Positions 6,725 to 51,280 are shown, counted from the stretch's first letter. The stretch: DNA of 55,825 bases from an uncultured Candidatus Saccharibacteria bacterium (GCA_964561365.1 CAZLPF010000005.1:1-55825), one strand, 5' to 3'. The notes: generated by a model not told the origin, from the letters alone. Numbers and translations: made by a program.

Positions 6725-6797
6725 AAAGGTTGGTTCCGATTAGTGCTCAGGCGTCCGGCAGCTTCCAAAACCGGGGGAAGCGGCGGGGCGCCCGGGT

Positions 6798-7505: not shown

Positions 7506-7514
7506 GGAAAAAAG

Positions 7515-7784: not shown

Positions 7785-7786
7785 TT

Positions 7787-8122: not shown

Positions 8123-8134
8123 CCGATAAAAATA

Positions 8135-8281: not shown

Positions 8282-8573
8282 GCTCGTTTCTCCGTGCGAC
8301 GGGGGAGCGAAGGTGTTTCAAATTCCGCTTTTTAGCCCTGCGTCTGCAGGGGTAATTGTACGGAAATATTTTCATCCGGTCAATTGCCGGGTGATCCTAA
8401 AAAATGACGCACAGTTTTTGCACAACATATAAACAAGAAGATAAAAAGTCCTCTTAAATAAGAGGTTATTGAGAAAATTTACATGTTGATAAGTGGTTGT
8501 TAGAATACGTTGAGTTCAAGAGCCCTTGGGTCCGTTCGATAGAAAAAACAAGCGTACCGACACCAAAGAACGC
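8282..8573. promoter_or_regulatory. rpmH-dnaA intergenic region with DnaA boxes
   Basis: AT-rich; TTTTGCACA (8416-8424) fits TTWTNCACA; TGTTGATAA (8484-8492) is a one-mismatch box on the minus strand. Confidence 0.6.
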
Positions 8574-9926
8574 ATGAATAATCAGCAGCTCTGGCAAGCC
8601 ATTCTCGGAAGCTTAGAGGTTTCGCTCTCGAAGGCGAACTTCAACACCTGGTTTAAGAACACCGGTATCGTCGACCGCGGCGACACCTACATTATCGTCG
8701 GGGTACCGAGCGCCTTTAGCCGAGACTGGATCGCGGCCAAGTACCACCAGGAAATGCTTAAAAGCTTGAAAGGTATTGCCCCCGAGGTGCACGAGATCCG
8801 TTACCAGCTCGGCACGGCCAGCAAGCCAGCGGGCCAGCCTTCCCAGGGATCGAGCAGCGCTCCGCAGCCCTCGCACCAGCAGTCCGCAACCCCAGCGCAG
8901 CCCACCGTAGCGGGCCTGAACCCGCGCTACACGTTCGACACGCTCGTCATTGGCAAAAACAACGAGCTCGCAAACGCCGCCTGCGTGGCCGTGGCCAAGA
9001 ATCCCGGCAGCCAATACAACCCGCTCTTCCTCTACGGCGGCGTGGGCCTCGGCAAGACGCACCTCATGCAGGCCGTCGGCAACCGGCTGCTCGAAACCAA
9101 CCCACGGGCCCGCGTTCTGTACGCGACGAGCGAAAAATTCACGAACGATTACATCAACTCCATTCAGCAGAAGCGCACCGAGGAGTTCAAACGAGCCTAC
9201 CGCGACATTGACGCGCTGCTCATCGACGACATTCAGTTCCTCGCCGGCAAAGAGGGGACGCAGGAAGAATTCTTTCACACCTTCAACGACCTCCGCGATC
9301 GCGGCCGGCAAATTATCATCACCTCCGACCGCCCCCCGAAGGAGATTCCAGCCGTGGAGCAGCGGCTCATTTCCCGCTTCGAGTGGGGTATGGTCGCCGA
9401 CATCCAGGCCCCGGACCTCGAAACCCGCATGGCAATCTTGCGGACGAAGATGCAGAAGCGGAGCGTTGAGCTCGAAGAGGACATCCTTTTCTACATAGCC
9501 GAGAATATCCAGAGCAACGTCCGCGAGCTCGAGGGGGCCCTAAACCGCCTCGCTGTTTACCAGCAAATGGACAACCGGGCGCTCGTCTTAGACCAAGCTA
9601 AAAGCATTTTAGTCAGTGTGATTGGCGCTAAAAAGCGGGTGACCTCGGTCCGCAAGATTGCAGAAATGGTCGCTGAATTCTACAACGTCAGCTTCGACGA
9701 CCTCATCAAGCAATCGCGCAAGAAAGAGTATGTGAAGCCGCGCCAGGTCGCCATGTACCTCATCCGCCGCGAGCTCGATTCGAGCTTTCCGTCAATTGGA
9801 GAATTCTTCGGCGGACGCGACCACACCACGGTCATGCATGCCGTCGACAAGATCGGGAAAATGGTTGAGCAGAAGAACGGGTTCAAACAAGAGGTGGATC
9901 TCATTATGGATAAGTTGTTCGTGTAG
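8574..9926 (+). CDS. dnaA: Chromosomal replication initiator DnaA
   Basis: [35 protein letters not shown]; ATG at 8574. Confidence 0.99.
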
Positions 9927-10152
9927 CTCGGAGAAACTCTGTAGAACCTGGGTTCAATCACCCACGAAGTGGGGATGAAAGCTGTCACCTACCTCACTTC
10001 CAAAAACAAACAGCTACATACCAACACTTCACCCCCATAGGCACCCACAAGATCAATCCTGTGAACGAGCTCATTCCCTAGTAAAGAACGCGTGTCCCCA
10101 CTGTACCTCCCCTTACTACCATTACTTGTTCTAAATCTGTAACGAAATAGTT
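9927..10152. other. Candidate oriC unwinding region (dnaA-dnaN intergenic)
   Basis: Degenerate DnaA-box-like motifs, a C-rich spacer, then TTA CTA CCA TTA CTT (10113-10127) resembling DnaA-trios. Confidence 0.6.
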
Positions 10153-11253
10153 ATGAAAGTAATCTGCACACAAGAGAACCTCAGGGTGGGGCTCGGGAAG
10201 GTAGCCCGGGTCATTGGTGCGACGAACACGCTTCCGATACTGAGCAACGTGCTCATGCGAGCCGAGAGCGGAATTTTGCGCCTGTCGGCGACAAACCTCG
10301 AGGTTGCGGTGGTAACCGAAGTTCGCTGCAAGGTTGAAGACGAGGGGAGCACCACGGTTTTAGCTAGAACCTTCACCGACCTCGTCAACAACCTTCCGAA
10401 CACGAACGTCAGCCTTGAAACGAGCGGGTTAACGCTCAAACTCGAAGCCGAACACTACCAAACATTCATAAAAACACTGCCAGCTGAAGAGTTTCCGCTC
10501 ATTCCCGAAGTCGAGCCGCGCCTAAAGCTTTCAGTTCCAGCCGTAACGCTCCAGGAAGCTATTGCCGAAGTTTCATTTGCCGCTTCCACGAACCAGACCC
10601 AGCCGGAAATAACCGGAATTCTTTTCTCCATTGAGCGGAAAGTCTTAAAGCTCGTGGGTACTGACCGCTACCGCCTGGCAGAGAAGACCGTGAAGCTGCC
10701 GGGAGACGTCGGCGGCCCGCTCGAGGTCATTGTTCCGCAGCGGACCTGCACTGAACTCTCGCGCATCCTGGGTCCGAAGGATGGCGATGTTGAAATCGTA
10801 TTCGGTGATACCCAGGTCGCGTTTTCGGCATCGGGCACCCGGGTCGTCAGCAGGACCATTGACGGCCAGTACCCACCCTACCAGCAGATCGTCCCCTCCG
10901 AGTTCACCACGACCGTCCTCGTGCCGCGGCAGGCGCTCGTTTCAGCGCTCCGCGCCGGCAGCGTCTTCAGCAGCTCGGCGAGCAGTGTCGTGGTCAGCTT
11001 CGACCCCGACAAGCAGGCCCTCGAGGTCGCCTCCGAATCCGCCGAGCTCGGCTCGAGCCGGGTCGAAATTCCCTCCGAGGTCTCCGGCCAGGCCGGCAAG
11101 CTCCTACTGAACTTCCGGTACCTCCAAGAGTGCCTGTCGGCCACCTCGGCTGAAAAGGTGAAGCTCAAGGTCACTGGCGAGACGTCGGCGGCCATCTTAG
11201 AGCCCGAGGGCGACCCGAGCTACCTCTACCTCGTTATGCCCATCAAGAGCTAA
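10153..11253 (+). CDS. dnaN: DNA polymerase III beta clamp
   Basis: LSATNLE, EEFPLIP, VGTDRYRLA, GQYPPYQQIVP, YLVMPIK. Confidence 0.98.
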   Translation: MKVICTQENLRVGLGKVARVIGATNTLPILSNVLMRAESGILRLSATNLEVAVVTEVRCKVEDEGSTTVLARTFTDLVNNLPNTNVSLETSGLTLKLEAEHYQTFIKTLPAEEFPLIPEVEPRLKLSVPAVTLQEAIAEVSFAASTNQTQPEITGILFSIERKVLKLVGTDRYRLAEKTVKLPGDVGGPLEVIVPQRTCTELSRILGPKDGDVEIVFGDTQVAFSASGTRVVSRTIDGQYPPYQQIVPSEFTTTVLVPRQALVSALRAGSVFSSSASSVVVSFDPDKQALEVASESAELGSSRVEIPSEVSGQAGKLLLNFRYLQECLSATSAEKVKLKVTGETSAAILEPEGDPSYLYLVMPIKS

Positions 11254-11256
11254 CCT

Positions 11257-12348
11257 ATGCGGATTCGCAACATCCAGATTAAGAACTTTCGCAACTATCC
11301 GCACCTAAACATCGACATCACCGGCGACGTGGTGGTGCTGTCGGGCCCGAACGCGGTCGGCAAGACGAACCTGCTCGAGTCCATTTACTTCGCGTCGCTG
11401 TTCAAGTCGTTCCGCGACGACACCGAATTCATTTTCCTCCGCGACTTCACCGATGCGCAGATCCGCATGGTCGTCGACAAGGGCGGTGAAGACCATACCA
11501 TTGAGGTCTTCCTCGAGCGGCGCGACCGCATCTTTGCGAACTTCAGCATCGATGGGGTTAAGAAGCGCCGCCGCGATGCGCAGGGGTTCCTCTCGGTCGT
11601 CATTTTCGACCCGACCGACGTTGACCTGTTTTCGAAGACGCCAGATGCGCGGCGCAAGTACCTGAACATGGTCCTCGCCCAGAAAGACCTCCGCTACCTA
11701 GACGCCCTGACCCAGTACAAGCAGGTGCTCCAGCGGAAAAGCCGGCTGCTCCAGGATACCCGCGCCGGGCTCTCGGGGGGTGAAGATCTGCCGGCCTGGA
11801 ACGAGCAGCTCGTCGAGCTCGGCAGCCAGATTATTACCGAGCGGCGCAAGTTCCTTTCGTTCTTAAACGACAGCATTTCGGAAATTTACGCGAACATTTC
11901 CGGATTCCACCGCCCGGTCGAAGTTTCCTACGAGAGCGTGGCCGGCGAGACGCAGGAGGAAATAGCCGAACAGCTCCGCCAGAAGCTCGCGCTCTACGCC
12001 GAAAAGGAAGCCGCCGCCGCAGCCTGCCTGGTCGGCCCGCACCGCGACGATTTTTCGCTCAAGTCAGACGGCCTCTACCTGTCGCCGTTCTCCTCACGCG
12101 GCGAGCTGCGGAGCCAAGTCCTCGCCATTAAGGTTTTAGAGCTCGAGTACCTCTCCCGCGGCGGCGAGAAGCCCATTCTCCTGCTCGACGATGTGCTCTC
12201 CGAGCTCGACGAAGTCAGGCGGACCTACCTCCTTCGCTACCTCCAGGGAAAGTTTCAGACGTTCATTACCACGACGCACCCGCTCGAAATGCCGGCGCAG
12301 CACATTACCCTCACGCCGGCGGTGCCCGAAGGGCAGGACGAAGCCTGA
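11257..12348 (+). CDS. recF: DNA replication/repair protein RecF
   Basis: NFRNY, GPNAVGKTNLLESI, GPHRDD, LLLDDVLSELD. Confidence 0.96.
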   Translation: MRIRNIQIKNFRNYPHLNIDITGDVVVLSGPNAVGKTNLLESIYFASLFKSFRDDTEFIFLRDFTDAQIRMVVDKGGEDHTIEVFLERRDRIFANFSIDGVKKRRRDAQGFLSVVIFDPTDVDLFSKTPDARRKYLNMVLAQKDLRYLDALTQYKQVLQRKSRLLQDTRAGLSGGEDLPAWNEQLVELGSQIITERRKFLSFLNDSISEIYANISGFHRPVEVSYESVAGETQEEIAEQLRQKLALYAEKEAAAAACLVGPHRDDFSLKSDGLYLSPFSSRGELRSQVLAIKVLELEYLSRGGEKPILLLDDVLSELDEVRRTYLLRYLQGKFQTFITTTHPLEMPAQHITLTPAVPEGQDEA

Positions 12349-35695: not shown

Positions 35696-35706
35696 CCCCC
35701 GAGTGC

Positions 35707-35744
35707 AAACCCGTCCCGCGGTACCCGCGGGACGGGTTTTTCTT
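35707..35744 (+). terminator. Intrinsic terminator
   Basis: 15-bp stem AAACCCGTCCCGCGG/CCGCGGGACGGGTTT followed by a T-rich tail. Confidence 0.75.
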
Positions 35745-35771
35745 TGCCCCCATACCGCCTATAATTGAGCC

Positions 35772-38540: not shown

Positions 38541-39074
38541 ATGGCCGCTGATGAACTGCTCGAAATTTACGACGAGAACGACGAGCCGCTCGGCAAGACC
38601 AAACATCGCGGCGAGGTGCACCGTGACGGTGACTGGCATAGAACCGTGCACGTTTACATCGTGAATGGTTCTGGTGAGCTGCTCGTGCACCTCCGGAGCC
38701 CCTACAAAGATTCCACCCCGAATTGCTGGGATACGAGGTTCGGTGGCCACGTGAAGTCCGGCGTACGCCCGCTCGACGTTGCGGTTTCCGAATTGTTTGA
38801 GGAACTTGGGATTGCGGTTGACCCTGGCGAGCTCGCCGAGCTACCGAAGCAGCGGTACGACGGGGCAACCAACCGTGAACACATCTACCCCTTCATGCTC
38901 GGGAAAGATCTCAATTCTGCCGACTGCCGATTTAATGATGGTGAGGTGGTCGAGGTGCGGTGGTTGAGCCCGGAGCAGATTATTTCTGAAATGGACACTA
39001 CACCGGAACGGTGGGGTGTTATGGTCGATAGTTTCAAAAAAATTGTTCCTCTGTTGAAGCATGGACGAAATTAA
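38541..39074 (+). CDS. NUDIX hydrolase (IDI-like)
   Basis: GDWHRTVHVYI, WDTRFGGHV, AVSELFEELGI, EVVEVRW. Confidence 0.88.
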   Translation: MAADELLEIYDENDEPLGKTKHRGEVHRDGDWHRTVHVYIVNGSGELLVHLRSPYKDSTPNCWDTRFGGHVKSGVRPLDVAVSELFEELGIAVDPGELAELPKQRYDGATNREHIYPFMLGKDLNSADCRFNDGEVVEVRWLSPEQIISEMDTTPERWGVMVDSFKKIVPLLKHGRN

Positions 39075-40056
39075 CAAATCTGAAATTGAGATCTACCGGG
39101 CCCCGGGAGGCCCGGAGCTCGCCATTCGCTTCGAGGGCGAGACGTTTTGGATGAGCCTGCAGCAAATGGCCACGCTGTTCGGCAGGGACAAGTCGGTCAT
39201 CTCGCGGCACATTAAGAACATCTATAAAGACGCAGAGCTAAGCCAAAAGTCAGTTGTTGCATTTTTTGCAACAACTGGGCCGGACGGCAAAACCTACCGC
39301 GTTGAGCACTTCAGCTTGGACATGGCCATTTCCGTCGGGTACCGGGTCAGCTCCCGGCAGGGAACCCAGTTCCGAATTTGGGCAACCCAGCGGCTGAACG
39401 ACTACCTGCTGAAGGGCTACGCCATTAACGAGCGGCGGCTCAAGGAGAGCGGGCAGGTAAAACTCCGCGAGCTCGAGGGCGCCAACCGCCTGCTCCGGAG
39501 CGTTATTGAGTCGCGCAAGGCCGAAGGCTACGAGCGTGAGCTGCTGTCCATTATTACCGACTACACGGCCACGTGGTTGACGCTGCAGCGCTACGATGAG
39601 GGCACGCTCGAGGTCGGCCAGGGCACGCGGCGCAAGGCTGCGCAGCTCAAGTCCGAAGACTTGCGTAAAATCATTTTGAAGTTTAAAGCCCGGCTCATCT
39701 CGCGCGGCGAGGCTGGTTCGCTGTTCGGCCAGGAGACGGGTGGGAGGTTTGAGGCCGCGCTCAAGTCGGTAGATCAGACCTTCGGCGGCAAGGATCTGTA
39801 CGTCTCGCTCGAAGAAAAGGCGGCGCACCTGCTCTACTTCCTCATCAAAGACCACCCGTTCGCCGACGGGAACAAGCGCATCGCCTCGCTCGTCTTTTTA
39901 CTCTACCTGCTCGAGAACCGCCTGCTCATGAGCAAAAAAGGCGAGCGGCGGGTGAATGACTCGACCCTCGCGGCCCTCGCCCTGCTCGTAGCCGAGAGCA
40001 AGCCGGACCAGAGAGATGTTATGTGCGCCCTCGTGGCCAGCTTGCTGACTAGGTAA
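39061..40056 (+). CDS. RhuM-like N-terminal domain fused to Fic/Doc domain
   Basis: FWMSLQQMATLF, SVGYRV, FRIWAT (RhuM); HPFADGNKR (Fic/Doc). Confidence 0.9.
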   Translation: MDEINKSEIEIYRAPGGPELAIRFEGETFWMSLQQMATLFGRDKSVISRHIKNIYKDAELSQKSVVAFFATTGPDGKTYRVEHFSLDMAISVGYRVSSRQGTQFRIWATQRLNDYLLKGYAINERRLKESGQVKLRELEGANRLLRSVIESRKAEGYERELLSIITDYTATWLTLQRYDEGTLEVGQGTRRKAAQLKSEDLRKIILKFKARLISRGEAGSLFGQETGGRFEAALKSVDQTFGGKDLYVSLEEKAAHLLYFLIKDHPFADGNKRIASLVFLLYLLENRLLMSKKGERRVNDSTLAALALLVAESKPDQRDVMCALVASLLTR

Positions 40057-40372: not shown

Positions 40373-40906
40373 TCGTTCGTTACGTTAGTGCGATTTGCTG
40401 TGTGCGCCGAGCGGTGGCGCTGCGAACACGGTGGACGTATTCTAGCGAAACCAACAATAAAAAACAAGAGGATTTTATATACGTGCCTACCCTGAAATTA
40501 GTGCGCCAATCCGTGTCCCGTTAGGCAACGCTTGTAGTAATAATTCCAACTTGCTGTTATGCTAGATTCAATATAAGCGTAGCCGTTTGTAGCCTCTAAC
40601 GAATACAGTTCTCTAATTTTTTAAAGGACGATAACTACACAAATAAAAGGCGAACGTTAGTACACCAACCAGTACGATCATTAGTTATACTTTGAACCAG
40701 TTATGGGTCAGCCAGTGCATAGCTTGACAGTTTATTGATAAGATGATAGAATATTTTGCTATACTAAATGTAGCTTCTGAAGGTTTTGAAAACAGAGTGG
40801 TCCCGCTGGCGGAATTTGTACCCGCAAGTACGGGCAGTACAAAGGTTAACAAGATCATCACGTTTGCTAATTTCGCCACGGAGGGACAACCCTACTTTTG
40901 AAAATC

Positions 40907-40982
40907 AGAACGCCCGTAGGGCGGGGAACTGGCGTTAATAAGTGCCATGGATGGCTCCAGTCCCCCGCCCTACGGGCGTTCT
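40907..40982. repeat. 26-bp inverted repeat (1 mismatch) with 24-nt spacer
   Basis: AGAACGCCCGTAGGGCGGGGAACTGG ... CCAGTCCCCCGCCCTACGGGCGTTCT. Confidence 0.85.
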
Positions 40983-40985
40983 TTT

Positions 40986-41759
40986 TTATTCCGACTCCGC
41001 TTCTTGTGGGCCGGGATTTTTATTTTCTGCTGGATTGTCCTTGGGGAGCGCTTTGTCAGCAAAGGCTTCTAGAGCTTTTTTCAGGGTAAACCAGTCGGCA
41101 TTTAATTGTTCGTCATCAAGTAAACGATTTTTTAGTGTTGCTGGCAAATTTAACACCAACCTGCCATCAGCTACTGGCGTCGGAGAAAAGCCGTGTAAAT
41201 TTTCGGGCAGATGTTCTTCGTGCTTGTGGACCGCAGCCGCAGCTTTAGTTTTTGCGGCTGGCGTTCCGGTTTTCGCCTTCGACTCTCTCTTTCTTGACGC
41301 AACCGTGCCCTCTGGTTTCAGCCCGGCATACTCACAGAGCTTGTAAAAGAATGGTATAGCAGTGGTCGCGATGCGTTTTGACAGGCCGTACTGGGCAACA
41401 AATTCGTTATAAAGATCGACCTGGGGCAAGTTCTGGGGATTATCGACGCTATCGAATAATTTTTTATAAGCTGTCCGCACAATTTTTTCGAATTCAGCTT
41501 TCCTCGCTTCACCCTGTATCCGGAGCTTGGCCATTGCTTCGGTTGGTTGCCCGGCGTCGTTTACTAGGCCCAAGAACTTCAGGGCGTTGAATGCGAGCAA
41601 GGCATCGTTAGGGCTAAACCCCCGGGCAGTAAAGAAAGAAACTGAAACCTCGGTCAGGTTACGGGTGGAAATGAGCTCAATAGTCTGCACGAGCTTTACC
41701 ACGCTGAAATAAGGGGGGGTTATCTGTCTAGGTTTTTGGGGTTCGGTACTTGTAGTCAT
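40986..41759 (-). CDS. DUF5343-like hypothetical protein
   Basis: PPY...GFS...ALKFLGLVNDAGQPT pattern recalled for DUF5343; low GC; TTGACA-17-TATAAC promoter upstream. Confidence 0.6.
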   Translation of the reverse strand: MTTSTEPQKPRQITPPYFSVVKLVQTIELISTRNLTEVSVSFFTARGFSPNDALLAFNALKFLGLVNDAGQPTEAMAKLRIQGEARKAEFEKIVRTAYKKLFDSVDNPQNLPQVDLYNEFVAQYGLSKRIATTAIPFFYKLCEYAGLKPEGTVASRKRESKAKTGTPAAKTKAAAAVHKHEEHLPENLHGFSPTPVADGRLVLNLPATLKNRLLDDEQLNADWFTLKKALEAFADKALPKDNPAENKNPGPQEAESE

Positions 41760-41987
41760 ATAAGTTCATGTTATAGGAATCCCAATTATGTGTCAATACC
41801 CATTTTTATTGGGGTTTTTCACTTCTGGGGTTGTGGCCAAAGACTTCATGGGGATTCTAAAACAAGTACTTGAATTGGTCAATATATCGCGGTGGTTTTT
41901 TATAAATCTTCATTTTTGGCTTACTTATAAGGGATAATATACTTATTCTGACTTAACAACCTTAAACTATCTTGCTTCTATACATTT

Positions 41988-42187
41988 ATGAACACAATAC
42001 AATTCACCAACCTAATAGAGTTTATGCCGTATTTTAAGGACGAGGCCGCCTGCACCCATTATTTCGAGCAAATCCGCTTCGGGACGGGGAATACTGCCCC
42101 CATTGCCGCAACCCTAAAATCTACCGCATGAATGACGGCAAAAGATTCCGTTGCGTCCGTTGCCAAAAGGACTTCACTATATTATAA
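41988..42187 (+). pseudogene. IS1595-family transposase N-terminal remnant (frameshifted, truncated)
   Basis: FKDEAACTHYFEQIRF, then in a shifted frame DGEYCPHCRNPKIYRMNDGKRFRCVRCQKDFTIL* (zinc ribbon). Confidence 0.8.
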
Positions 42188-42268
42188 ATCCCAAAACAAG
42201 GGTTTCGGACCCCCTTGCGCCGGCGGCTCGGTAGGAATAGAGTGCCTTGAATTTCCGGGAGGTAACAT

Positions 42269-42883
42269 ATGTTTTCAGCTTTCAGCGTCGCCGATGCGAT
42301 GCGCGCGGTAATCTTTCACGTGCTAACGGTAGCGGGTCTTTCGTGGTACTGCTACTGCGGCATCGTCCGACGTACAACCACTAACTTCTTTGTCTGGGTT
42401 ACGCTCGCGGCTGTTGGCTGCATTGCAGCCTGGCAGGGTATCGACGTTTTACCCGTCCCGTGGTTCCTGTTCGTCATTATGGCTTTCGTGGTCGTCATGG
42501 TTGAGAACCCAGGCGACCAAAAGGAAGAAATTGAACGAAATCGTGCGTTCGATGTTCCGGTTTGGATCGCGCTGCTGCTCGCGACGGTCGGGCGGTTGTT
42601 CGGACTCAGCGACGCGAACGCCGGGTACTGCCTGCTCGCCGTCGTGGCTTTGGTCGGAATTCGGTTGCTCGTGAAGGTTAGCAGCGGCCCATCCTCTGAG
42701 CCGCTATTGGCCTGGGCCTGCATCGCTTCGGCCGCGGTGTTTAAGACGACATCTGCGTGGTCCTCCTACGATACCGTAGCGCTCGGAGACGTGGTATGGC
42801 TGGCGTTTAGCCTCACCTTGCTACTCGGGGGTCTCGCTGTCCGCGCCGTGTGCTACCTCTCTCTGGCTGGAGTTGCCCGCTGA
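42269..42883 (+). CDS. Multi-TM hypothetical membrane protein
   Basis: RBS GGGAGG; about 6-7 hydrophobic segments. Confidence 0.75.
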   Translation: MFSAFSVADAMRAVIFHVLTVAGLSWYCYCGIVRRTTTNFFVWVTLAAVGCIAAWQGIDVLPVPWFLFVIMAFVVVMVENPGDQKEEIERNRAFDVPVWIALLLATVGRLFGLSDANAGYCLLAVVALVGIRLLVKVSSGPSSEPLLAWACIASAAVFKTTSAWSSYDTVALGDVVWLAFSLTLLLGGLAVRAVCYLSLAGVAR

Positions 42884-42942
42884 AGTGTGCCACACCATAC
42901 TATTTGCCCCGCGCGTTCGTCGAACGCGCGGGGCATGCTGTT

Positions 42943-43389: not shown

Positions 43390-43472
43390 ACGTGAACCCT
43401 ACACCTCGCCCCTGCTTCCGGCAAATGAAAAGGACCCGCGGCGTTGTGTAGCCGCGGATCCTATCGTGCAGT

Positions 43473-44087
43473 TTACCGGACGGTGTAGGCGAGCCCTACC
43501 CCGACGGTTTTTGTGGCGCTCCCCCGAAAGCGAACGGGGATGCCGTACTCGGCGAGAAAGGTCAGCTTGCCGACCGGTACGGCGATGCCGACTGGTACGT
43601 TCAGCACCGGATCGGGCGGCGTGAACAGCTTGCCGGCCGCTTGCCCGAGCGGAACCAGGCTGCTGAGGCCCACGTACGGAGAGTACGCGAACTTCTTTAC
43701 CTTCAGGTCCCAGCTCCCGAGCAGTGCCGCAAAGTAGGTAACCGCGCCGTCCCCCCGCCGGTTTACCGGGACATTCAGGAGCTGAAAAGTCCCCAGGTTT
43801 CCGTACTTCGATTTTATGAAGTTCACGTTGAACCCTGGTGTTGCGGTGAACTGCGTCCGGCCAGTCGTAGTTGTGTGCGTCACGCAACCGTAGGCATCAA
43901 CGCGGTTGTTGATGCCGTACGCCACGCAGCCGTAGCTGAATGCTACCTTCGGCAGGCCTTCGGTCAAAATCAGGTTCGGCCCAATGAAAGCCGTAACTTT
44001 GTCGGTACCCGAGGTCGTCGGGACGTTGAGCGTCTGCGCCTGGAGCGCGGCGGCGAGCATCGCCAAAAAAACCGTTTTCACGAACAT
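43473..44087 (-). CDS. Secreted beta-strand-rich protein (204 aa)
   Basis: Own RBS CAGGAGG, ATG 44087, signal peptide MFVKTVFLAMLAAALQA; alternating polar/hydrophobic strands; in frame with the upstream ORF. Confidence 0.7.
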   Translation of the reverse strand: MFVKTVFLAMLAAALQAQTLNVPTTSGTDKVTAFIGPNLILTEGLPKVAFSYGCVAYGINNRVDAYGCVTHTTTTGRTQFTATPGFNVNFIKSKYGNLGTFQLLNVPVNRRGDGAVTYFAALLGSWDLKVKKFAYSPYVGLSSLVPLGQAAGKLFTPPDPVLNVPVGIAVPVGKLTFLAEYGIPVRFRGSATKTVGVGLAYTVR

Positions 44088-44366
44088 GGTGTGTCCTCCT
44101 GTAACGTTTGGGAATCCAATTCCGGATTTCTGATGCGGCATCAGGCTCCCGGAAAGGGAGGGAAGCGCCCGGTAGAGGTGCTTCCCGAGGTTGGGGTCGA
44201 TGGCTGCTGCGGCGAGGCACAGCAGCAGGGCGATGGCCCACAGCACGAGCGCGTCGTGGAGGGCGGTCATCCGTTGCTGTTCGGTCGTTGCGCGCGTGTA
44301 GCGTACAGCATTCGAGAGAACCGCTGCCGCCATAAATATCCAAGAGAACCCTAGAAATACGAACAT
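44088..44366 (-). CDS. Small two-TM ORF with no stop, reading into the downstream gene
   Basis: RBS TAAGGAGG, ATG 44366; two hydrophobic segments; its 3' part is the repeated intergenic element. Confidence 0.5.
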
Positions 44367-44401
44367 GAGAACCTCCTTATGTGCAGCCTCTTTAGCGCTG
44401 G

Positions 44402-44665
44402 CTAGGCGTCGAGCGCTGGTAACCGCTCGGTGAATTTCTTTCCGCCGATGCGTCGGTAGTCAGCGGCGAGCGCGTCGTACCACCCGGGCAGCGTATTCCG
44501 CTCATCGATGCGACACTCGGTGAGCAGCTGCAGCGCCGCGCGCAGCTCTTGCGACCGGCCTCGGTTCAGGGTGGGGAAGCCGTCCTGTTTGTGGCACCAC
44601 ACCGTGCGGATCGCGTCGAGCAGCTGTTCGTAACCGCTGATTTTCATGCCAATTACCATGTACAT
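44402..44665 (-). CDS. Hypothetical protein (first gene of cassette 1)
   Basis: RBS AAGGAG after a sigma70 promoter; 87 aa. Confidence 0.65.
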   Translation of the reverse strand: MYMVIGMKISGYEQLLDAIRTVWCHKQDGFPTLNRGRSQELRAALQLLTECRIDERNTLPGWYDALAADYRRIGGKKFTERLPALDA

Positions 44666-44692
44666 GCCCTTCTCCTTTTTGTTTGAAGAGAC

Positions 44693-44827
44693 ATAGTACC
44701 ATAAAGAATCATTTAGGTCAATAAGTATGATTATTAAAGTTTAAAAAACTGTTTTATTTAAAAGATAAATTTAGATATACTTATAATAATCAAAAAAATT
44801 GACTAAGCACTTCATTTGCCATACCAT
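44693..44827. promoter_or_regulatory. Divergent sigma70 promoters with palindromic operator candidates (cassette 1)
   Basis: Minus: TTGACC-17-TACTAT. Plus: TTGACT-17-TACCAT. TCA-N7-TGA over both -35 boxes. Confidence 0.7.
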
Positions 44828-44833
44828 TAATGC

Positions 44834-45580
44834 ATGGAATTAACCGACGTTTTGCGTTCCGCCGGTCTCAGCGACAAAGAGGCGGCTGTTTACCTCGCGC
44901 TCCTCGAGCTCGGGCCGTCGACCGCCTACCGCATTGGTCCGAAGGCCAAACTGAAACGGCCGATAACCTACGTTGTTCTGGAGCAGCTACAGCGGCGGGG
45001 GTTGACCTCGGTGGTGCCCCAGGGCGACCGGAAGCTGTACGTCGCTTCAGAGCCGGGCAAGCTCCTCGGCGAGCTTGAGCACAGCCGTGAACTGTACAAG
45101 CGGTTCTTGCCGAACTTCGAAGCGCTCTACCAGAGCACCGAGGGGAAAGAGAAACCCCAGGTGCAGCTCTTTGAGGGTGACGAGGGCATCCGTCACGTCT
45201 ACGACGAGATCCTGAAAGCGCGCGAGGTCAGTTTTTTTGCGACAATCCGCGACTTCATGGAATTTTATCCGGAGTTTGCCGATGAGCTCATCGCGGGCGC
45301 GAACGCCGGCCGCCTGCGCGTGCGAGAAATTTTGAGCCAAAACCCTGCCGATCTCGCCTTCGCCGCGCGGGTTCGCGGAACCGCGAACTATGAGCATCGG
45401 CTCGCGCACGCCGGCAGCGAATTTCTGACGGACAACTGCCTGTTCTCGAACAAGGTGACTTTTTTTGCCTACCAGCCGTTCCGCTTCGCGGTCGTAATCT
45501 CGAGCAAGGCAATCTGCCAGTCCATAACCACGCTGTTCGAGCTGGCTTGGCGGGCCGCCACGCCGCTGGGCGAACGGTAG
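44834..45580 (+). CDS. TrmB-family winged-helix transcriptional regulator
   Basis: GLSDKEAAVYLALLELG...KLKRPITYVVLEQL, VQLFEGDEGI; C-terminal effector-like domain. Confidence 0.88.
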   Translation: MELTDVLRSAGLSDKEAAVYLALLELGPSTAYRIGPKAKLKRPITYVVLEQLQRRGLTSVVPQGDRKLYVASEPGKLLGELEHSRELYKRFLPNFEALYQSTEGKEKPQVQLFEGDEGIRHVYDEILKAREVSFFATIRDFMEFYPEFADELIAGANAGRLRVREILSQNPADLAFAARVRGTANYEHRLAHAGSEFLTDNCLFSNKVTFFAYQPFRFAVVISSKAICQSITTLFELAWRAATPLGER

Positions 45581-45595
45581 TTCGTACCGACCTTC

Positions 45596-45671
45596 TGTAC
45601 CTCCTCTGGGCACCCAACTGACTTGCGGTGCTCGGAGGAAGTGGGGAAGCGCGCGGCTTCCCCGAGGTTGT
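45596..45671 (-). repeat. Repeated intergenic element, copy E (no start codon follows)
   Basis: AACCTCGGGAAGC...GCTTCCCCACTTCC-hairpin-GAGGAGG. Confidence 0.6.
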
Positions 45672-46511
45672 TTATCCACCCGCTCTTTTCCAGGAGTGAG
45701 AGCTACCGAAGTAAGCGGTTCCGCCCTGGTGGAGGGGGTCGTGGATTTCCCCGAAGCGCGGCGTGCAGCCGTCTTTCCCGAGCAGTGGCAGGAATTCGAC
45801 CACGTCGAGCCCCGCGGCAGCGAACGCCCGCAGGTCCCGCCGCGGTCCGCCGCCTTTGTTGTGGGCGTCCGTCGCCGCTTGCCAGCGCCCTCCCGCGAGC
45901 TGGCCTGCGACAGCGTTCAACACGTCCCAGTCTTCTGTTCTCAAGGGGTGGTAGGCCGCGAGCTTCTTTTCAAGGGAGTAGGCGCACTGGTGCGGCCCCT
46001 CCCGCTCCACGAGCTCGCAGAACCACTGGCCGAGTTCGTTCATCCACCAGCTACCGAGCTTGCCGATGCAGGCGGCGACGAACACATCGTCCAGGAGCCA
46101 GTGGTTGATGCGTTCCGCGCCCTGCATCCAGTCTGTTGCTTTGCCCTGGTCCCACACGAGCTCGCGCTCGGTGGTATCGGCTGCGGTGGAGATGAGGAGC
46201 AGGTCTTCGAGCACGAGTGGTTCTTGTATGGCGCCAATCGTCCTCAGCAACTCCTTGCGGCAGCGCAGGAACAGCTCCTTGAGTGACGATTTCTGACGAA
46301 CGCGCTCGGAGCCGCTGTAGATAATGCCGACAGCGTTGGTAACGTCGGCGTCATCGGCGTGGCTCTTCGATGCCCACAGCGCCCGCTGTAGGACGTTGTA
46401 GTCGCGTGCGCTGAGCAGGGCCTCGGTGAGCCGCAGCCGAGCGACGGCATTTGCGAACGGGTAGGGCTCAATTGCCTTCCGCAGAGCTGCGGATTCATTT
46501 TCGTTTTTCAT
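45672..46511 (-). CDS. Hypothetical helical protein (279 aa)
   Basis: RBS CAGGAGG; no recognised motif. Confidence 0.7.
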   Translation of the reverse strand: MKNENESAALRKAIEPYPFANAVARLRLTEALLSARDYNVLQRALWASKSHADDADVTNAVGIIYSGSERVRQKSSLKELFLRCRKELLRTIGAIQEPLVLEDLLLISTAADTTERELVWDQGKATDWMQGAERINHWLLDDVFVAACIGKLGSWWMNELGQWFCELVEREGPHQCAYSLEKKLAAYHPLRTEDWDVLNAVAGQLAGGRWQAATDAHNKGGGPRRDLRAFAAAGLDVVEFLPLLGKDGCTPRFGEIHDPLHQGGTAYFGSSHSWKRAGG

Positions 46512-46623
46512 GTACGTATCCTCCTGGGGTTTCCTGTTTCCAGTCCGCTATGCATTGCGGCCTGGAAAGGGGAGGGAAGCTGGTCTGGGCAGGGTACCGG
46601 GCTTCCCGAGGGTTTGGTGGTCG
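46512..46623 (-). repeat. Repeated intergenic element, copy A
   Basis: CCCTCGGGAAGC...GCTTCCCTCCCCTTTCCAGG...AATGCATAG...CTGGAA...CAGGAGG. Confidence 0.75.
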
Positions 46624-47007
46624 TTAGTCCACGGTGACGTGCTCGAGCGCTCTGTCACCGAGGAGCTCTCGGACCGCGCCAACCAAGACTTTCACGTTCA
46701 GGCAATCGCCGAAGTTCGAGCCCCACCTGCGGAGGCGGAAACTCGCCTGGCCTTTACCGCGAACGGTGGCTTCGACGTCTTCCGGCTTCAGGCCTGCTTC
46801 CTCTACTGCCGCGACGACCGCGGTGACAATCCCAAATACCGGGCCGTAGAGCTGGGCCCCCGAGGGCATCGGGCTTCCGTTGTGGTAGTAGACGATCTGC
46901 AGGCACTCCAAACAGAAGCTCACTTCAACGAGCGCTACTCCGGTTTGGGTGTTTCCGTAGATGTGGCGCACGCGCGCACAGAAACGGTCAATCCTGGTCA
47001 TGGTCAC
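46624..47007 (-). CDS. Hypothetical protein (127 aa)
   Basis: RBS TAGGAGG 8 nt before GTG; contains CLEC. Confidence 0.65.
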   Translation of the reverse strand: MTMTRIDRFCARVRHIYGNTQTGVALVEVSFCLECLQIVYYHNGSPMPSGAQLYGPVFGIVTAVVAAVEEAGLKPEDVEATVRGKGQASFRLRRWGSNFGDCLNVKVLVGAVRELLGDRALEHVTVD

Positions 47008-47097
47008 TTACTGTTCCTCCTATGGTTCCAACGTTCAGCGAGCGAGCGCGTCGTTCGCTAAAAGAGAGAGGGAAGCTAGGCTTCCCTTGCGTTTCCG
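47008..47097 (-). repeat. Repeated intergenic element, copy D
   Basis: GGGAAGC-CTA-GCTTCCC TCTCTCTTTTAGCGA...TCGCTGAA CGTTGGAACC ATAGGAGG. Confidence 0.7.
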
Positions 47098-47388
47098 CTA
47101 TTCGCTAACGTCCGATTCCGGTTCACGGACCTCGTAGTGGGTGCCGGTCGTCGCCATGAGGGTCTGGTAGGCCTGCGCGGCGAGCGAGAGCGAGCCGACG
47201 ATGCTGGCCCGGCTGCTCCGGTTCTTCTCCATGCCGAGCTTGTCGGCGACCTCTTCCCACGTGGCGTGTTTGAATTCGGTCGAAAGCTCACAGTACGCGG
47301 CCACGATGCCCTTCGTCCGCTCGGTCATGTCGAGTTCGTTCGCACCTCGGCGGAGCGCGTCGGGTGAATACTTTTCATAAAGAGCCAT
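47098..47388 (-). CDS. Small hypothetical protein, possible HTH
   Basis: RBS CAGGAGG, ATG 47388; ATWEEVADKLGMEKNRSSRASI resembles an HTH. Confidence 0.65.
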   Translation of the reverse strand: MALYEKYSPDALRRGANELDMTERTKGIVAAYCELSTEFKHATWEEVADKLGMEKNRSSRASIVGSLSLAAQAYQTLMATTGTHYEVREPESDVSE

Positions 47389-47470
47389 GGTTCCTCCTGA
47401 AGGTTCCAACTTCCAGCCCGCTATGCATTTCGAGCTGGAAAAGGGAGGGGAGGTTTTATAAGCTTGCCAG
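47389..47470 (-). repeat. Repeated intergenic element, copy B (lacks first hairpin)
   Basis: CCCCTCCCTTTTCCAGCTCG-AAATGCATAG-CGGGCTGGAAGTTGGAACCTTCAGGAGG. Confidence 0.75.
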
Positions 47471-47490
47471 TTCGTTTTATTTGAAAAGAA

Positions 47491-47626
47491 ATAGTACCAT
47501 AAATGCGTATTAAGGTCAATAATACTGACTTAATAAAACTAAAAATTATCTTTTAAATAAAAGCTTTTTTCTATAATTAAACAATTTGTCAGAAATATTG
47601 ACAGAAAATGAAAATAAGAATATACT
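47491..47626. promoter_or_regulatory. Divergent sigma70 promoters with palindromic operator candidates (cassette 2)
   Basis: Minus: TTGACC-17-TACTAT. Plus: TTGACA-17-TATACT. GGTCA-N7-TGACT and TGTCA-N7-TGACA. Confidence 0.75.
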
Positions 47627-47632
47627 GTAAAT

Positions 47633-48394
47633 ATGGAAATTACTGAGGTTTTGGGACGGGCTGGGCTGGGTGAAAAAGAGGCGAGCGTTTACCTTGCCCT
47701 TTTAGAGCTGGGTACGTCGTCGGTAAACCCAGTTGCCGCAAAAGCCGGCATCAAGCGGCCGACGGCCTACCTCATACTCGACCAACTCAGCCACCAGGGG
47801 CTCGTCAGCGCAGTGCCGCACTCAAAGAAAGTCCTCTATACGGCCGAGAGTCCGGAGCGGATCCTTTCGGAAATGGGCAAGCGCGAGGAGCTGCTCAAGA
47901 GGTTCATGCCGAACCTGCTCGCCCTCTACAACGAGAAGAAAGAAAAGCCGCAGGTGCGGCTGTTCGAGGGGAAGGAAGGCATTGCCAAGGTTTACCAGCA
48001 CATCTACGCGGCCAAGACGGTAAACTTTTTCGGCACCGTGCGCGAGGCGCTCAAGTACGACCCCGAAGACTTGTGGGAGTTCGTTGAGCGTACCCACCGG
48101 GAAGCCATGCACGTGCGCGACCTCCTGTTCCGCACCCCGGAAGACTACGAGTACGCGAAGAAGGCTCGGAACAGCAAGAACTACCAGATCCGTTTTCTGC
48201 CCGAAAGCACGAGGGTCATGACCGACAACGCCATTTTCGGGGACTCCATAGCGTTCTTTTCTTTCCACCCGCAAATTTTTGCGGTGGTCATTGAGAGCCG
48301 CGAGATTGCGGCGGCGGTGCGCTCCCTCTACGAGCTCGCGTGGGCCGGGGCCGAACCGCTCGAGGCGGTGCTCGGGTCGCAGTCCGTCAAATAA
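47633..48394 (+). CDS. TrmB-family winged-helix transcriptional regulator (paralog of 44834)
   Basis: GLGEKEASVYLALLELG...GIKRPTAYLILDQL, KPQVRLFEGKEGI. Confidence 0.88.
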   Translation: MEITEVLGRAGLGEKEASVYLALLELGTSSVNPVAAKAGIKRPTAYLILDQLSHQGLVSAVPHSKKVLYTAESPERILSEMGKREELLKRFMPNLLALYNEKKEKPQVRLFEGKEGIAKVYQHIYAAKTVNFFGTVREALKYDPEDLWEFVERTHREAMHVRDLLFRTPEDYEYAKKARNSKNYQIRFLPESTRVMTDNAIFGDSIAFFSFHPQIFAVVIESREIAAAVRSLYELAWAGAEPLEAVLGSQSVK

Positions 48395-50560: not shown

Positions 50561-51217
50561 GGTTCGCGCAGGAGGAGGATGACTAGCGCGGCGGATGAAC
50601 TTGGCAGCAGGTGAGGGGATCACACCCCTCGTTCAGCCGCTCGGGCTGATTCCCGTGGCGGGAAACCTGCTAGAAGGAACCTCCTTAGAACTGGCGGGCA
50701 AACAGCGGGCATCACACAACCCACCTGAGCGGCGGGTTTCCGCCAGACGAAGCCTCGTGTTTGCCCATGAACTTGGAAATGTATCGGGGGACTGCGCTGA
50801 CAACTCGCCCGAAAAAACTACCGCGGTGAAATGAGCGTATGCAGTTTTCTACAGGCCAGGCGGGCCGCTTTCGGCGTAGCGCTAGGGCGGCTGCAGTCCC
50901 CCGACGGAATATTTTACCTCTTCGCCTTCATTCCGTCAATAGGAAAGCGGCGCCCCGGGAGGAGGGGGCGCCGCTTGCTTTCGGAGTCGGAAACGTGGTT
51001 CTGCGGGAAAAATTTCACCGCTGATAGCTTACGCTACATTACCCGCAGTGAACGCGAGCCGCTTCCGTTTCGCGTGGTAGAAACCGCCAGGGAACTACCA
51101 CCTTATTGCATATCCTCCGAAAGATTGTGTAGGCCGAAGGCCCAAAAATTCTGGGCCGGGTGCCCGTAGTACCGAACGGCGTCCGCTCAGCTTACGGGCA
51201 CCCGGACCTCCCCGTTC
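50525..51217 (-). ncRNA. Putative ~690-nt large structured non-coding RNA, class unassigned
   Basis: Flanked by its own promoter and terminator; no credible ORF; more than 12 helices including 12-13 bp perfect stems and long-range domain-closing helices; GNRA-type loops on the minus strand. Confidence 0.75.
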
Positions 51218-51220
51218 CGA

Positions 51221-51272
51221 AACTTTACTTCCATTTAGGGTTTTTGTCAACGCCCGCCCGAACCGGTACAAT
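51221..51272. promoter_or_regulatory. Back-to-back promoters sharing one -35 region (ncRNA and ruvA)
   Basis: Minus: TTGACA(51250-45)-18-TAAAGT. Plus: TTGTCA(51244-49)-17-TACAAT. Confidence 0.65.
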
Positions 51273-51280
51273 CGTTGCGT

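Follow-up and report, generated by a model that had tools for sequence, protein, structure and literature searches.

Five copies of a spacer of 75-110 bases, lying between unrelated small genes, were found in the window (the whole stretch of DNA analysed, 55.8 kb), and they represent a real, undescribed structured RNA that probably controls the expression of the next gene, not an integron-type recombination site. This reading rests on the repetition of the element, its conservation across lineages, covariation in its second hairpin, strand bias, purifying selection and a lack of promoter-like sequence. More specifically, we give an about even chance to a cis-acting structured spacer of a polycistronic mRNA, composed of a first hairpin (H1), a second hairpin (H2) and a ribosome-binding site for the next ORF. 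Judged by its sequence, the window is a Patescibacteria chromosome and Doudnabacteria-like.

The first-pass annotation had placed copies in five minus-strand intervals, and homologous sequence is indeed present in all five intergenic intervals (Table 1). The full copies have the same order: H1, a directly abutting H2, 4-17 nt, the strong ribosome-binding site AGGAGG and the start codon. Each gene-flanked copy supplies a ribosome-binding site at the correct distance from the start codon. The H1 pattern GGGAAGC-N(3-20)-GCTTCCC occurs four times in the 55.8 kb (copies A, B, C and D) and nowhere else, against an expectation of 0.05. Some details of the earlier description had to be corrected. Copy B, which was said to lack hairpin 1, has one, and the decayed hairpin 1 is that of copy E. 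Copy E was said to have no gene after it, whereas an ATG at 47388 opens a 96-aa gene there; the copy without a downstream gene is B, which adjoins the 3' end of the convergently transcribed TrmB2. A stop codon had been described before each copy; this fails for copy A, through which the ORF from 44366 continues in frame as far as the next gene, to give a 297-aa ORF.

Table 1. Positions of the spacer copies, their parts, and the neighbouring promoters and genes.
Feature	Position	Strand	R1 score (bits)	Hairpin 1	Hairpin 2 and following motif	Ribosome-binding site	Description
Copy E	47389..47475	-	71.4	decayed: GGCAAGC 47462-47468, CCTCCCC 47447-47453	extended, 47405-47446; then UUGGAAC	AGGAGG 47393-47398	5' leader of g96; promoter P1 lies upstream
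Copy D	47008..47097	-	65.5	47070-47086, then CUCUCUUUU	47034-47062 (UUUAGCGA...UCGCUGAA); GGA 47027-47029	47016-47021	between g96 and g127
Copy C	46512..46623	-	68.4	46574-46607, 20-nt loop	extended, 46532-46573	46520-46525	between g127 and g279
Copy B	45596..45671	-	undetected	45643-45663, GGGGAAGC-cgcgc-GCTTCCCC	CUUCCUCC...GAGGAGG, closing a different hairpin		end of operon 1; partial, diverged
Copy A	44088..44197	-	57.6	44160-44186	extended, 44115-44159	44095-44100	between g5 and secreted p204
Promoter P1	47491..47519	-					TTGACC-17-TGgTACTAT; divergent from TrmB1
Promoter P2	44693..44721	-					hexamers of P1; divergent from TrmB2; predicted to drive g87, g5, A, p204
TrmB1	47633..48394	+					TrmB-family winged-helix regulator (PF01978, 1.2e-13)
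TrmB2	44834..45580	+					TrmB1 paralogue, 44% identity
g96	47098..47388	-					96-aa all-helical protein; dN/dS 0.16; three distant homologues
g127	46624..47007	-					small protein; dN/dS 0.45; no match in family search
g279	45672..46511	-					no detectable homologue; dN/dS 0.22
p204	43473..44087	-					204-aa secreted protein with signal peptide; conserved in relatives
g5	44198..44366	-					small two-helix membrane ORF with strong ribosome-binding site; no stop before A; dN/dS 0.18

The copies are distributed over two operons, which diverge from two TrmB-type regulators; the homologues of TrmB1 carry the name Candidatus Doudnabacteria. The predicted promoter P1 would drive E, g96, D, g127, C, g279 and B. 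The two promoters are homologous to each other (72% over 71 nt), and no promoter-like site was found between H1 and the next gene when the window and the relatives' loci were scanned. The downstream genes had been regarded as unrelated orphans. They are unrelated, and g279 is an orphan; however, g96 has distant homologues, and p204 shares 62% identity with its counterparts in L027/L028 and 34% with that in L031. In these relatives, p204 is the first gene past the TrmB-divergent promoter.

The copies form a mosaic of shared parts: A and C are alike in H1, C and E in H2, and D and E at the 3' end. Strings like AAAGGGAGGGAAGC occur four times. Copies C and E have 61 nt in common at 80% identity, the loop of hairpin 2 among them, which might suggest functionless leftovers of recent local duplications. 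This explanation is hardly credible: the genes on either side are not related to one another, change accumulates less rapidly in the elements than at synonymous sites, and homologues in distant lineages carry compensatory changes that contradict it. A single tandem duplication including the genes, which would have undercut the first-pass proposal, also fails to explain the repeats, because the proteins encoded on the flanks are mutually unrelated.

Five other lineages (GC 41-49%) each have a single homologous copy at the corresponding locus, between TrmB and rpsT. A profile made solely from the window copies recovered those of L134 and L135/L136 (E about 2e-4), and the covariance model R1 recovered those of L029/L030 (32.7 bits, E 2e-7) and L139 (31.9 bits, E 1e-7), in each case without prior training on the copies found; the L133 copy was spotted by eye. 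On sequence evidence, the element is not private to the window and is conserved at one locus in at least six lineages, so that the absence of further copies and of covariation, which would have spoken against the proposal, does not apply. The relatives' copies adjoin different genes, or none. Downstream of the element are p119 (L133-L135), a 98-aa ORF (L139), g96, g127, g279 or p204 (window), or nothing (L029), and the upstream genes are mutually unrelated across lineages. Between lineages, homology extends from about 5 nt ahead of H1 up to the start codon, and the gene replacements are therefore precise to the ORF. A search of Rfam 15 with the window region and the relatives' loci gave zero matches at the gathering threshold or even at E up to 5, the only exceptions being tRNAs in L133.

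All copies point the same way and lie at one locus, within the ~55 kb of the window and ~230 kb of relatives (~290 kb searched). This distribution bears on a selfish miniature mobile element (MITE, REP or BIME type), inserted in intergenic DNA and merely tolerated. The copies are short, hairpin-rich and multiple in one genome, several have AACC-like strings at both edges, and a Y1 transposase gene is located beside TrmB in L135/L136. However, that gene occurs only there, and no Y1 transposase is encoded in the window; terminal inverted repeats and clear target duplications are absent; and in public genomes, metagenomes and viral contigs, pattern scans found hairpins at chance level only. Purifying selection on the copies, and the correctly spaced ribosome-binding site in each gene-flanked one, are also against mere tolerance. 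Such an origin is highly improbable, and for the ~290 kb searched the REP/BIME and MITE classes were rejected on the single locus and orientation, the missing terminal repeats and the restricted Y1 gene.

The one close relative compared was L001, a 96%-identical strain. Only 9 of 485 element positions differ between the two (~2%), and copies A and B are identical (0 of 201). By comparison, synonymous sites have diverged by 0.09-0.29 in the small genes on the flanks and by 0.04-0.055 in housekeeping genes. In copy D, one substitution turns a G·U pair into A-U. By this comparison, the copies are under purifying selection. The gene order and content at the array are the same in L001, and the shuffling of genes between copies that had been anticipated in close relatives was not seen.

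The pairing in H2 supports a function as RNA. The pyrimidine tract (UCC-xx-UUUCCAG) serves as the 5' strand of this hairpin, whose 3' strand ends with CUGGAA-xx-GGA; the tract once taken to lie free between the hairpins is thus one strand of an extended H2 (UCC..UUUCCAG:CUGGAA..GGA). RNAalifold analysis of an unedited MAFFT alignment gave 18 pairs, 10 of them with compensatory changes, from a set of only about ten independent sequences that were all fetched via TrmB neighbours. Pairing was present in 88% of cells versus 72% in shuffles, none of 500 shuffles reached the observed pairing or covariation, and controls with a slid strand were at most 50% paired. About ten G·U cells are found in the alignment, on the sense strand only, and R1 scored 53-79 bits in sense versus 13-28 bits in antisense orientation. 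The G·U pairs and model scores favour an element that acts as RNA of the mRNA (minus) strand. The claim that the stems keep pairing while their sequences change is borne out by H2; it does not apply to H1, whose stem is nearly invariant (GGGGAAG/CUUCCCC).

H1 has the form GGG(G)AAG(C)/(G)CUUCCC(C), with a folding energy of -11 to -22 kcal/mol (-2.3 for the decayed H1 of copy E, as opposed to -14 to -22 in the other copies of the window). It is a GC-rich stem of 7-8 bp, positioned just past the footprint of a terminating ribosome and followed by a pyrimidine run ending in U3-U6. Seven gene-flanked copies have both a stop upstream and an undamaged H1 (B, C, D, L133, L134, L135 and L139): in six of them H1 starts 8-16 nt past the stop, and in L134 ~92 nt past it. 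From these features H1 looks like an intrinsic (Rho-independent) terminator or attenuator. A terminator scan passed H1 and its tail in D and L135 and failed them in A, C and minus-strand B; the L139 tail UCUUUUUU is terminator-like by eye. Copy B also has a terminator-like site on the plus strand (45642-45664, hairpin 1 and then a T-rich tail), which could terminate TrmB2. In most copies, however, the U-tract is broken by C, whereas the clear terminators of this genome have clean U-tracts. Unlike intrinsic terminators, the H1 stem is conserved in sequence across lineages, and its tail doubles as one strand of the next hairpin. H1 is decayed where the upstream gene is absent (E) and kept at operon ends (B and L029); by this pattern, retention of the module is dependent on position.

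Conservation of the H1 stem, the hairpin junction and UUGGAA across lineages of 41% to 62% GC, while H2 is free to covary, might alternatively point to an operator. A trans-acting RNA-binding protein or small RNA would recognise the invariant parts (the GGGGAAG/CUUCCCC stem, CCCUCCCUUUU and UUGGAA) and co-regulate the translation or stability of the carrier genes. The two GGA motifs, 9-17 nt apart and one of them at the ribosome-binding site, have a layout that may resemble that of CsrA-type sites, in favour of such a factor. Moreover, the H1 loops of L133, L134, L135 and L029 have UUGC(A/G) in common. The window H1 loops, on the other hand, are mutually unrelated, and UCC is the predicted pairing partner of the GGA in UUGGA. 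No candidate factor was found; g96, the only gene always adjoining the window array, gave no informative match in a fold comparison. An operator of this kind is considered unlikely.

The persistence of the element while both neighbours change across lineages keeps alive a weak, homology-driven version of the cassette boundary also proposed in the first-pass annotation, in which unrelated ORFs are swapped, stacked or deleted at the element by homologous exchange or a recombinase. The ORF-precise edges of homology, the mosaic similarity, and the absence of the whole 3.4-kb array from L027 and L028, where the promoter leader runs directly into p204, are consistent with it; whereas ordinary gene turnover around a selected regulatory element gives the same pattern. 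Integron attC arrays have an IntI-type tyrosine recombinase, attI and Pc, and their sites form a single imperfect hairpin with R'' (RYYYAAC) and R' (GTTRRRY) cores. Like attC sites, the present structured repeats part promoterless and mostly unassigned ORFs in one orientation behind a promoter. But Pfam scans of the sizeable ORFs in the 55.8-kb window revealed no integrase, transposase or resolvase. The left ends (CCCCAAC, ACCAAAC and AAACAAC) and right ends (GTTGGAA, ATTGGAT and ACAGGAA) do not consistently match either core consensus, and the element carries the ribosome-binding site of the next gene. Two independent hairpins, G·U pairs in the sense strand only and strand-asymmetric model scores argue against an integron attC site and speak for RNA. 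With the unchanged gene order in L001 as well, a recombination or cassette boundary is rather improbable.

The cis-regulatory RNA that had been offered as the other possibility (an attenuator, processing or initiation module) is supported by the locus conservation, H2 covariation, sense-strand signals, purifying selection, and the lack of promoter-like sequence and of Rfam matches. RNase-processed intercistronic sites, such as the T7 early RNase III sites, papBA and malEF, have mapped cleavage and RNA segments of differing stability. Among the intercistronic hairpins reviewed in PMC5927463 are the malE-malF REP 3' hairpin, the puf intercistronic stem-loop and the papBA 5' hairpin (RNase E). 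As in those systems, stable hairpins conserved between relatives lie between co-transcribed genes, one immediately past the stop of the first gene and the other immediately ahead of the ribosome-binding site of the second, and they would be expected to determine how strongly adjacent cistrons are expressed relative to each other. In contrast to those systems, up to five members of one sequence family precede unrelated genes here, the two hairpins abut, and the first stem is sequence-invariant. Another parallel is the start-associated sequences and their extended forms (SAS/ESAS) of Cluster K mycobacteriophages (PMC3203893), where the 13-bp motif GGGATAGGAGCCC occurs at translation starts in 11-19 copies, about half of them with an inverted repeat of variable spacing ahead of them, and is presumed to act in translation initiation. 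Both are conserved motifs that take in the ribosome-binding region and recur in one orientation just upstream of the starts of unrelated genes. The likeness is in layout only; the window element differs in sequence from the SAS motif. Furthermore, SAS/ESAS are from phage genomes, with no second or terminator-like hairpin described there; whereas the present family is chromosomal, confined to one locus and has compensatory changes.

The element may also resemble three-part translational switches (anti-anti-SD : anti-SD : SD) of riboswitch platforms and leader attenuators. The 5' arm of H1 resembles the ribosome-binding site, the 3' arm is complementary to both, and H2 brings the two ends together; for example, the L133 ribosome-binding site GGAAGG is the perfect complement of CUUCC. 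When the 5' arm was masked in silico, the probability of an unpaired ribosome-binding site fell from 0.20-0.55 to 0.01-0.12 in six of seven copies, which is weak evidence because a pyrimidine arm freed from its purine arm pairs with any purine-rich ribosome-binding site. In copy E, the ribosome-binding site is ~99% paired with CCUCC (probability unpaired 0.01). The unconstrained folds of the other copies sequester it no more than shuffled upstream sequence does, and the toggle would therefore need a trigger. Unlike three-part switches, the 'on' fold is thermodynamically dominant in all copies except E, and the element showed no trigger such as a ligand-binding domain or a leader peptide. In RNA thermometers and translational riboswitch platforms, the default fold pairs the ribosome-binding site until a signal releases it; here the default fold does so only in E, and a sequestered alternative appears in the masked folds. 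If the 3' arm has to pair with either of two partners, this would account for an H1 stem that stays unchanged next to a covarying H2, although the invariance of this stem and of UUGGAA might just as well be due to a protein that binds there. The element must have some role besides serving a ribosome-binding site, because L029 and B keep it without a downstream gene.

If a trans-acting factor were involved, the carrier genes would constitute a small post-transcriptional regulon; if cassettes were exchanged, the RNA features would be a portable expression signal travelling with each of them. On the best reading, the cis-acting intercistronic module joins a terminator that leaks, or a 3' hairpin, to a structured leader and a strong ribosome-binding site, with termination or attenuation, RNA protection and an H1/ribosome-binding-site toggle as its inferred activities. 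H1 would end, attenuate or 3'-protect the upstream message, and in read-through transcripts it would lock its own pyrimidine 3' arm, which is complementary to the ribosome-binding site. H2 may be a rigid spacer or a 5' protective structure. Where the 5' arm of H1 is missing, as in copy E directly after the promoter, the pyrimidine arm would fold onto the ribosome-binding site and translation would be held down. The relatives have one copy, and the window lineage would have amplified it to five, before unrelated small genes of two TrmB-flanked operons. Together, H1 and H2 would present an insulated ribosome-binding site to any ORF that follows.

The five-copy intergenic repeat described in the first-pass annotation is real. 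Within the 55.8 kb, the hairpin 1 pattern, GGGAAGC-N(3-20)-GCTTCCC, is present four times, always in the array (0.05 expected), and copies C and E share 80% identity across 61 nt. A profile of the five copies revealed no additional match in the window. The flanking genes encode mutually unrelated proteins, and therefore the similarity is not that of a single tandem duplication including these genes. Two labels had been swapped: copy B, thought to lack hairpin 1, possesses it, and only copy E carries a decayed one (GGCAAGC...CCTCCCC, -2.3 kcal/mol); likewise, the small gene g96 follows E, and it is B that has no gene after it. The stop codon assigned upstream of each copy is missing for A, where the small gene g5 runs in frame through the element into p204. 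The UCCC(C)UUU tract and second hairpin are present; however, the tract forms the 5' side of an extended hairpin 2. The gene g5 has a strong ribosome-binding site, two hydrophobic helices and no stop codon. Together with copy A and p204 it forms one 297-aa ORF, which is also found in the close strain L001 (96% identical); judging from the sequence, either a fusion protein would be made or a stop codon may have been lost.

Pfam scans showed that the window is an ordinary bacterial chromosome, including rnpA-yidC-jag, dnaA-dnaN-recF, ruvABC, polA, uvrB, clpB, femAB and rpsT, and that it also encodes two class A penicillin-binding proteins. The GC content is about 62%, and the promoter regions are sharply AT-rich; neither tRNA genes nor Rfam families were found in the window. 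Homologues of the divergent winged-helix regulators TrmB1 and TrmB2 are labelled Candidatus Doudnabacteria or Patescibacteria by their sources. The array and associated features are listed in the table. The replication-origin region also lies within the window. In several housekeeping genes, a -10-like hexamer (TATACT, TATAAT or TACAAT) lies only 2-6 nt upstream of the predicted start codon and a ribosome-binding site is absent, which suggests that their mRNAs might be leaderless; in contrast, the small-gene arrays use strong AGGAGG sites. A low-GC island (45-50%) adjoins rpsT, with different DNA in its place in L001. It carries a DUF5343 gene matching the candidate defence family PDC-M34A, and the neighbouring RhuM/Fic gene matches the candidate defence family PDC-S23.

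Features of the array, of the surrounding window and of the compared loci (L-numbers)
Feature	Contig	Positions	Strand	Remarks
TrmB1	window	47633-48394	plus	divergent from P1
Promoter P1	window	47491-47519	minus	then copy E, g96, copy D, g127, copy C, g279, copy B
TrmB2	window	44834-45580	plus	3' end adjoins copy B; divergent from P2
Promoter P2	window	44693-44721	minus	hexamers identical to P1; then g87, g5, copy A, p204
g5	window	44198-44366
Copy A	window	44088-44197	minus
p204	window	43473-44087
Clean terminator	window	43431-43462	minus	after p204
Palindrome TTGTCA-N6-TGACA	window	47586-47603
Replication-origin region	window	6254-12348		rnpA, yidC, jag, dnaA, dnaN, recF
Putatively leaderless genes	window	2374-2443, 35696-35771, 51170-51274
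Low-GC island	window	40373-42942
RhuM/Fic gene	window	39061-40056
Analogous small-gene array	L029	13927-15002
GUCCAGAGAGCCCACGGGAC...GGGGUGAUACUCCGGCGGGAGUUG leader	L134	7690-7790	minus
GUCCAGAGAGCCCACGGGAC...GGGGUGAUACUCCGGCGGGAGUUG leader	L137	7752-7860	minus
p215-p250 promoter/leader	L027	9060-9200	minus
p215-p250 promoter/leader	L028		minus
p215-p250 promoter/leader	L134	6562-6700	minus
p215-p250 promoter/leader	L135	6750-6900	minus
p215-p250 promoter/leader	L137	4505-4640	minus
p215-p250 promoter/leader	L139	5475-5600	minus
Y1 transposase gene	L135	8793-9434
Y1 transposase gene	L136	8787-9434

Divergence was assessed against L001, a Logan contig 96-98% identical to the window. The small ORFs showed dN/dS values of 0.12-0.45, and are therefore under purifying selection as proteins. 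Their synonymous divergence was 0.09-0.29, compared with 0.04-0.055 for TrmB1, TrmB2 and uvrB. The five elements differed at 9 of 485 positions, with none of the changes among the 201 positions of A and B; these few changes relative to the synonymous divergence indicate that the elements are constrained. One of the changes converts a G·U into an A-U pair in hairpin 2 of D. The synonymous divergence of p204 (0.29) is several-fold higher than that of its neighbours (0.04-0.17), which points to allelic recombination or to a relaxed constraint on codons in this predicted secreted protein. Searches of Pfam, PHROGs and PADLOC with the small genes returned no match, and a single-sequence AlphaFold model of g96 (pLDDT 73, all-helical) found nothing below E = 1 in Foldseek.

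Homologous loci were compared among relatives. TrmB1 shares 86% identity with its counterpart in L027 and 65% with that in L028, and both contigs have the gene order polA, rpsT, p225, p204, TrmB (divergent from p204) and uvrB, without the element. Their leader CAAATAAAAC-CGGAGGACA...ATG leads directly into the p204 orthologue. In the window, copy E comes after this CAAATAAAAC, whereas the GGAGGACA belonging to p204 lies behind copy A; therefore the entire 3.4 kb is extra relative to L027 and L028. A copy in L134 (GC 44%) was recognised by eye (GGGGAAC-actgcactt-GTTCCCC-TCCCTTTTCCAGC...GCTGCAAATTGGAAAATTAAAGGAGG) and has 17 consecutive bases in common with copy E; the window-only profile also detected it (E = 2e-4), as well as L135/L136. 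The copy in L133 is more diverged. The first-pass annotation had proposed a covariance model, and such a model (R1, built from seven sequences), run on the window and the relatives' loci, found further copies in lineages absent from its training: L029/L030 (32.7 bits, E 2e-7) and L139 (31.9 bits, E 1e-7). Within the fetched TrmB neighbourhoods, every copy is located on the gene strand, in the interval from TrmB to rpsT; no copies were found in L027, L028, L031, L032, L137 or L140. The gene after the element encodes p119, a conserved protein of 119-121 aa, in L133, L134 and L135, and an unrelated, uncalled 98-aa ORF in L139; no gene follows in L029. The genes upstream of the element in these relatives are unrelated to each other.

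Wider searches were also carried out. Exact-pattern scans of species-representative genomes, JGI metagenomes and IMG/VR viral contigs gave chance-level hairpins only, lacking both hairpin 2 and the ribosome-binding site; these patterns had been derived from the window copies, which are GC-rich, and were too stringent to pick up the low-GC relatives. Phage and plasmid collections searched by BLAST with the 3.4-kb array gave no match, nor did Rfam for the element at gathering and permissive thresholds. Dozens of IMG/VR contigs (L033-L130, many from sample 3300045988) share a 22-nt hairpin, GGGAAGC-NNN-GCTTCCCTCYCY, probably a terminator that the members of one phage group have in common. Since this hairpin is not followed by a hairpin 2, it has no relation to the element.

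An earlier hand-made alignment was biased toward structure, and an unedited MAFFT alignment of seven copies was relied on instead. From this alignment RNAalifold predicted hairpin 2 as one long helix of 18 pairs, 10 of them with compensatory changes, in which a UCC-GGA pairing closes a small internal loop on the stem. Pair counting showed that 88% of cells are paired, compared with 72% in shuffles; none of 500 shuffles attained the observed pairing or covariation, and slid-strand controls reached at most 50% pairing. About 10 cells are G·U pairs, which are A·C mismatches on the opposite strand, and R1 scored 53-79 bits in the sense and 13-28 bits in the antisense direction. Thus hairpin 2 is an RNA structure in the mRNA sense. 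A role as TrmB operator was rejected, as the stem sequence varies with compensation; the operator is likely the other palindrome, TGTCA-N6-8-TGACA, in the promoter regions.

In contrast to hairpin 2, the stem of hairpin 1 is almost invariant: GGGGAAG/CUUCCCC in most lineages, GGGAAGC/GCUUCCC in the window, and GGGGAAC/GUUCCCC, a flipped apical pair, in L134 and L135. The loop is free in the window copies (3, 5, 13 and 20 nt). The hairpin starts 8-16 nt past the stop codon where one is present, except in L134 (about 92 nt), has folding energies of -11 to -22 kcal/mol, and is followed by a UC(C/U)(C/U)UUU(U) tract. A terminator scan flagged hairpin 1 in D and L135; the tail in L139 is UCUUUUUU. 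Scans found no promoter-like site between hairpin 1 and the next gene, so that an internal promoter was rejected and the downstream genes would depend on read-through. No consistent candidate for a competing antiterminator was found upstream of hairpin 1. Hairpin 1 is decayed where the upstream gene is absent (E), and retained at operon ends (B, L029); retention of the element's parts according to position is well supported.

Sequestration of the ribosome-binding site by the pyrimidine tract as a common default state was rejected, since it is true of E alone. In unconstrained partition-function folds, the probability of an unpaired site was 0.01 in E, whereas site pairing in the other copies was no different from that of shuffled-upstream controls. 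When the 5' arm of hairpin 1 was masked, this probability dropped to 0.01-0.12 in six of the seven copies: the freed 3' arm (CUUCC) pairs with GGAGG, and the rod continues hairpin 2. Copy E, without the 5' arm, adopts the closed form, and its 3' arm is a perfect CCUCC; the ribosome-binding site of L133 (GGAAGG) is the perfect complement of CUUCC. The 3' arm might pair alternately with its own 5' arm or with the ribosome-binding site, and binding to two partners would explain why the stem of hairpin 1 is frozen and hairpin 2 covaries. Such a modelled toggle is suggestive only, because any freed pyrimidine run will pair with a purine-rich ribosome-binding site, and the toggle would need a trigger. 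The evidence supports well a selected, cis-acting, sense-strand RNA module composed of a terminator-like hairpin, the covarying hairpin 2 and a strong ribosome-binding site, in agreement with the earlier suggestion of an undescribed cis-regulatory RNA. It represents a new family of structured RNA that is lineage-restricted and whose mechanism we infer.

A recombination or cassette boundary had been offered as the alternative. Both neighbours of the element vary between lineages with breakpoints at the element edges, and the window copies resemble one another in a mosaic fashion; this makes homologous exchange between copies a plausible by-product, though on the whole an unlikely one. However, the window encodes no recombinase, the element has two hairpins rather than the one of an integron attC and lacks the core sites, and the gene order in L001 is identical; an integron-like boundary thus found no support. 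That the element serves as the junction unit of a gene-capture system by which Doudnabacteria take up genes without an integrase is quite improbable. As such a conserved RNA and DNA module, at a TrmB-controlled hotspot beside rpsT, it would let copy-copy recombination swap and stack unrelated small ORFs precisely, from start to stop codon, each newcomer gaining a terminator/insulator and a ribosome-binding site at once. Returning to the RNA family, its closest counterparts in function are the hairpins that protect intercistronic regions of malEF, puf and pap (PMC5927463), and its nearest layout analogue is the repeated start-associated sequences of Cluster K mycobacteriophages, which carry inverted-repeat extensions (PMC3203893); the element is a member of neither.

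Other elements were observed at the TrmB loci. In the TrmB1 promoter, the palindrome TTGTCA-N6-TGACA overlaps the -35 hexamer, and TGTCAAttttt(c)TGACA precedes TrmB in all relatives read (L027, L028, L029, L031, L133, L135 and L137); it is probably a TrmB autoregulatory operator. In L029, a Doudnabacteria genome of 868 kb, the analogous small-gene array carries three copies of an unrelated intergenic repeat of its own: a GC-rich hairpin after the stop and then a 31-nt AU-rich palindrome (CCTTAGTAAA...TTTACTAAGG); the G·U pairs in these copies are on the gene strand. Two lineages share a near-identical leader of about 90 nt, GUCCAGAGAGCCCACGGGAC...GGGGUGAUACUCCGGCGGGAGUUG, downstream of the TrmB-divergent promoter, although the genes after it are unrelated; this leader matched nothing in Rfam and may be a further structured RNA. 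Upstream of rpsT, the conserved p215-p250 secreted-protein gene is served by a separate promoter within the palindrome TGTCAAG-N10-12-CTTGACA; next comes a hairpin in the leader that has a U-run (CCGCT...AGCGGgTTTTTT) and looks like an attenuator. A Y1 (IS200/IS605-type) transposase gene lies between TrmB and uvrB in one lineage only.

Patescibacteria have tiny genomes and few regulators, and to our knowledge almost no regulatory RNA has been characterised by experiment in them. The element is a compact, covariation-supported RNA motif at a variable locus that is flanked by TrmB and encodes small proteins of unknown function; in one lineage it is re-used as a plug-in spacer ahead of unrelated genes. 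It would also be a natural insulator part, combining a terminator with a ribosome-binding site, and R1 can be used for mapping the family across Patescibacteria genomes. Should the element prove to control termination, message stability or translation, it would reveal how genes are tuned within operons in Patescibacteria, and also how newly acquired ORFs gain expression.
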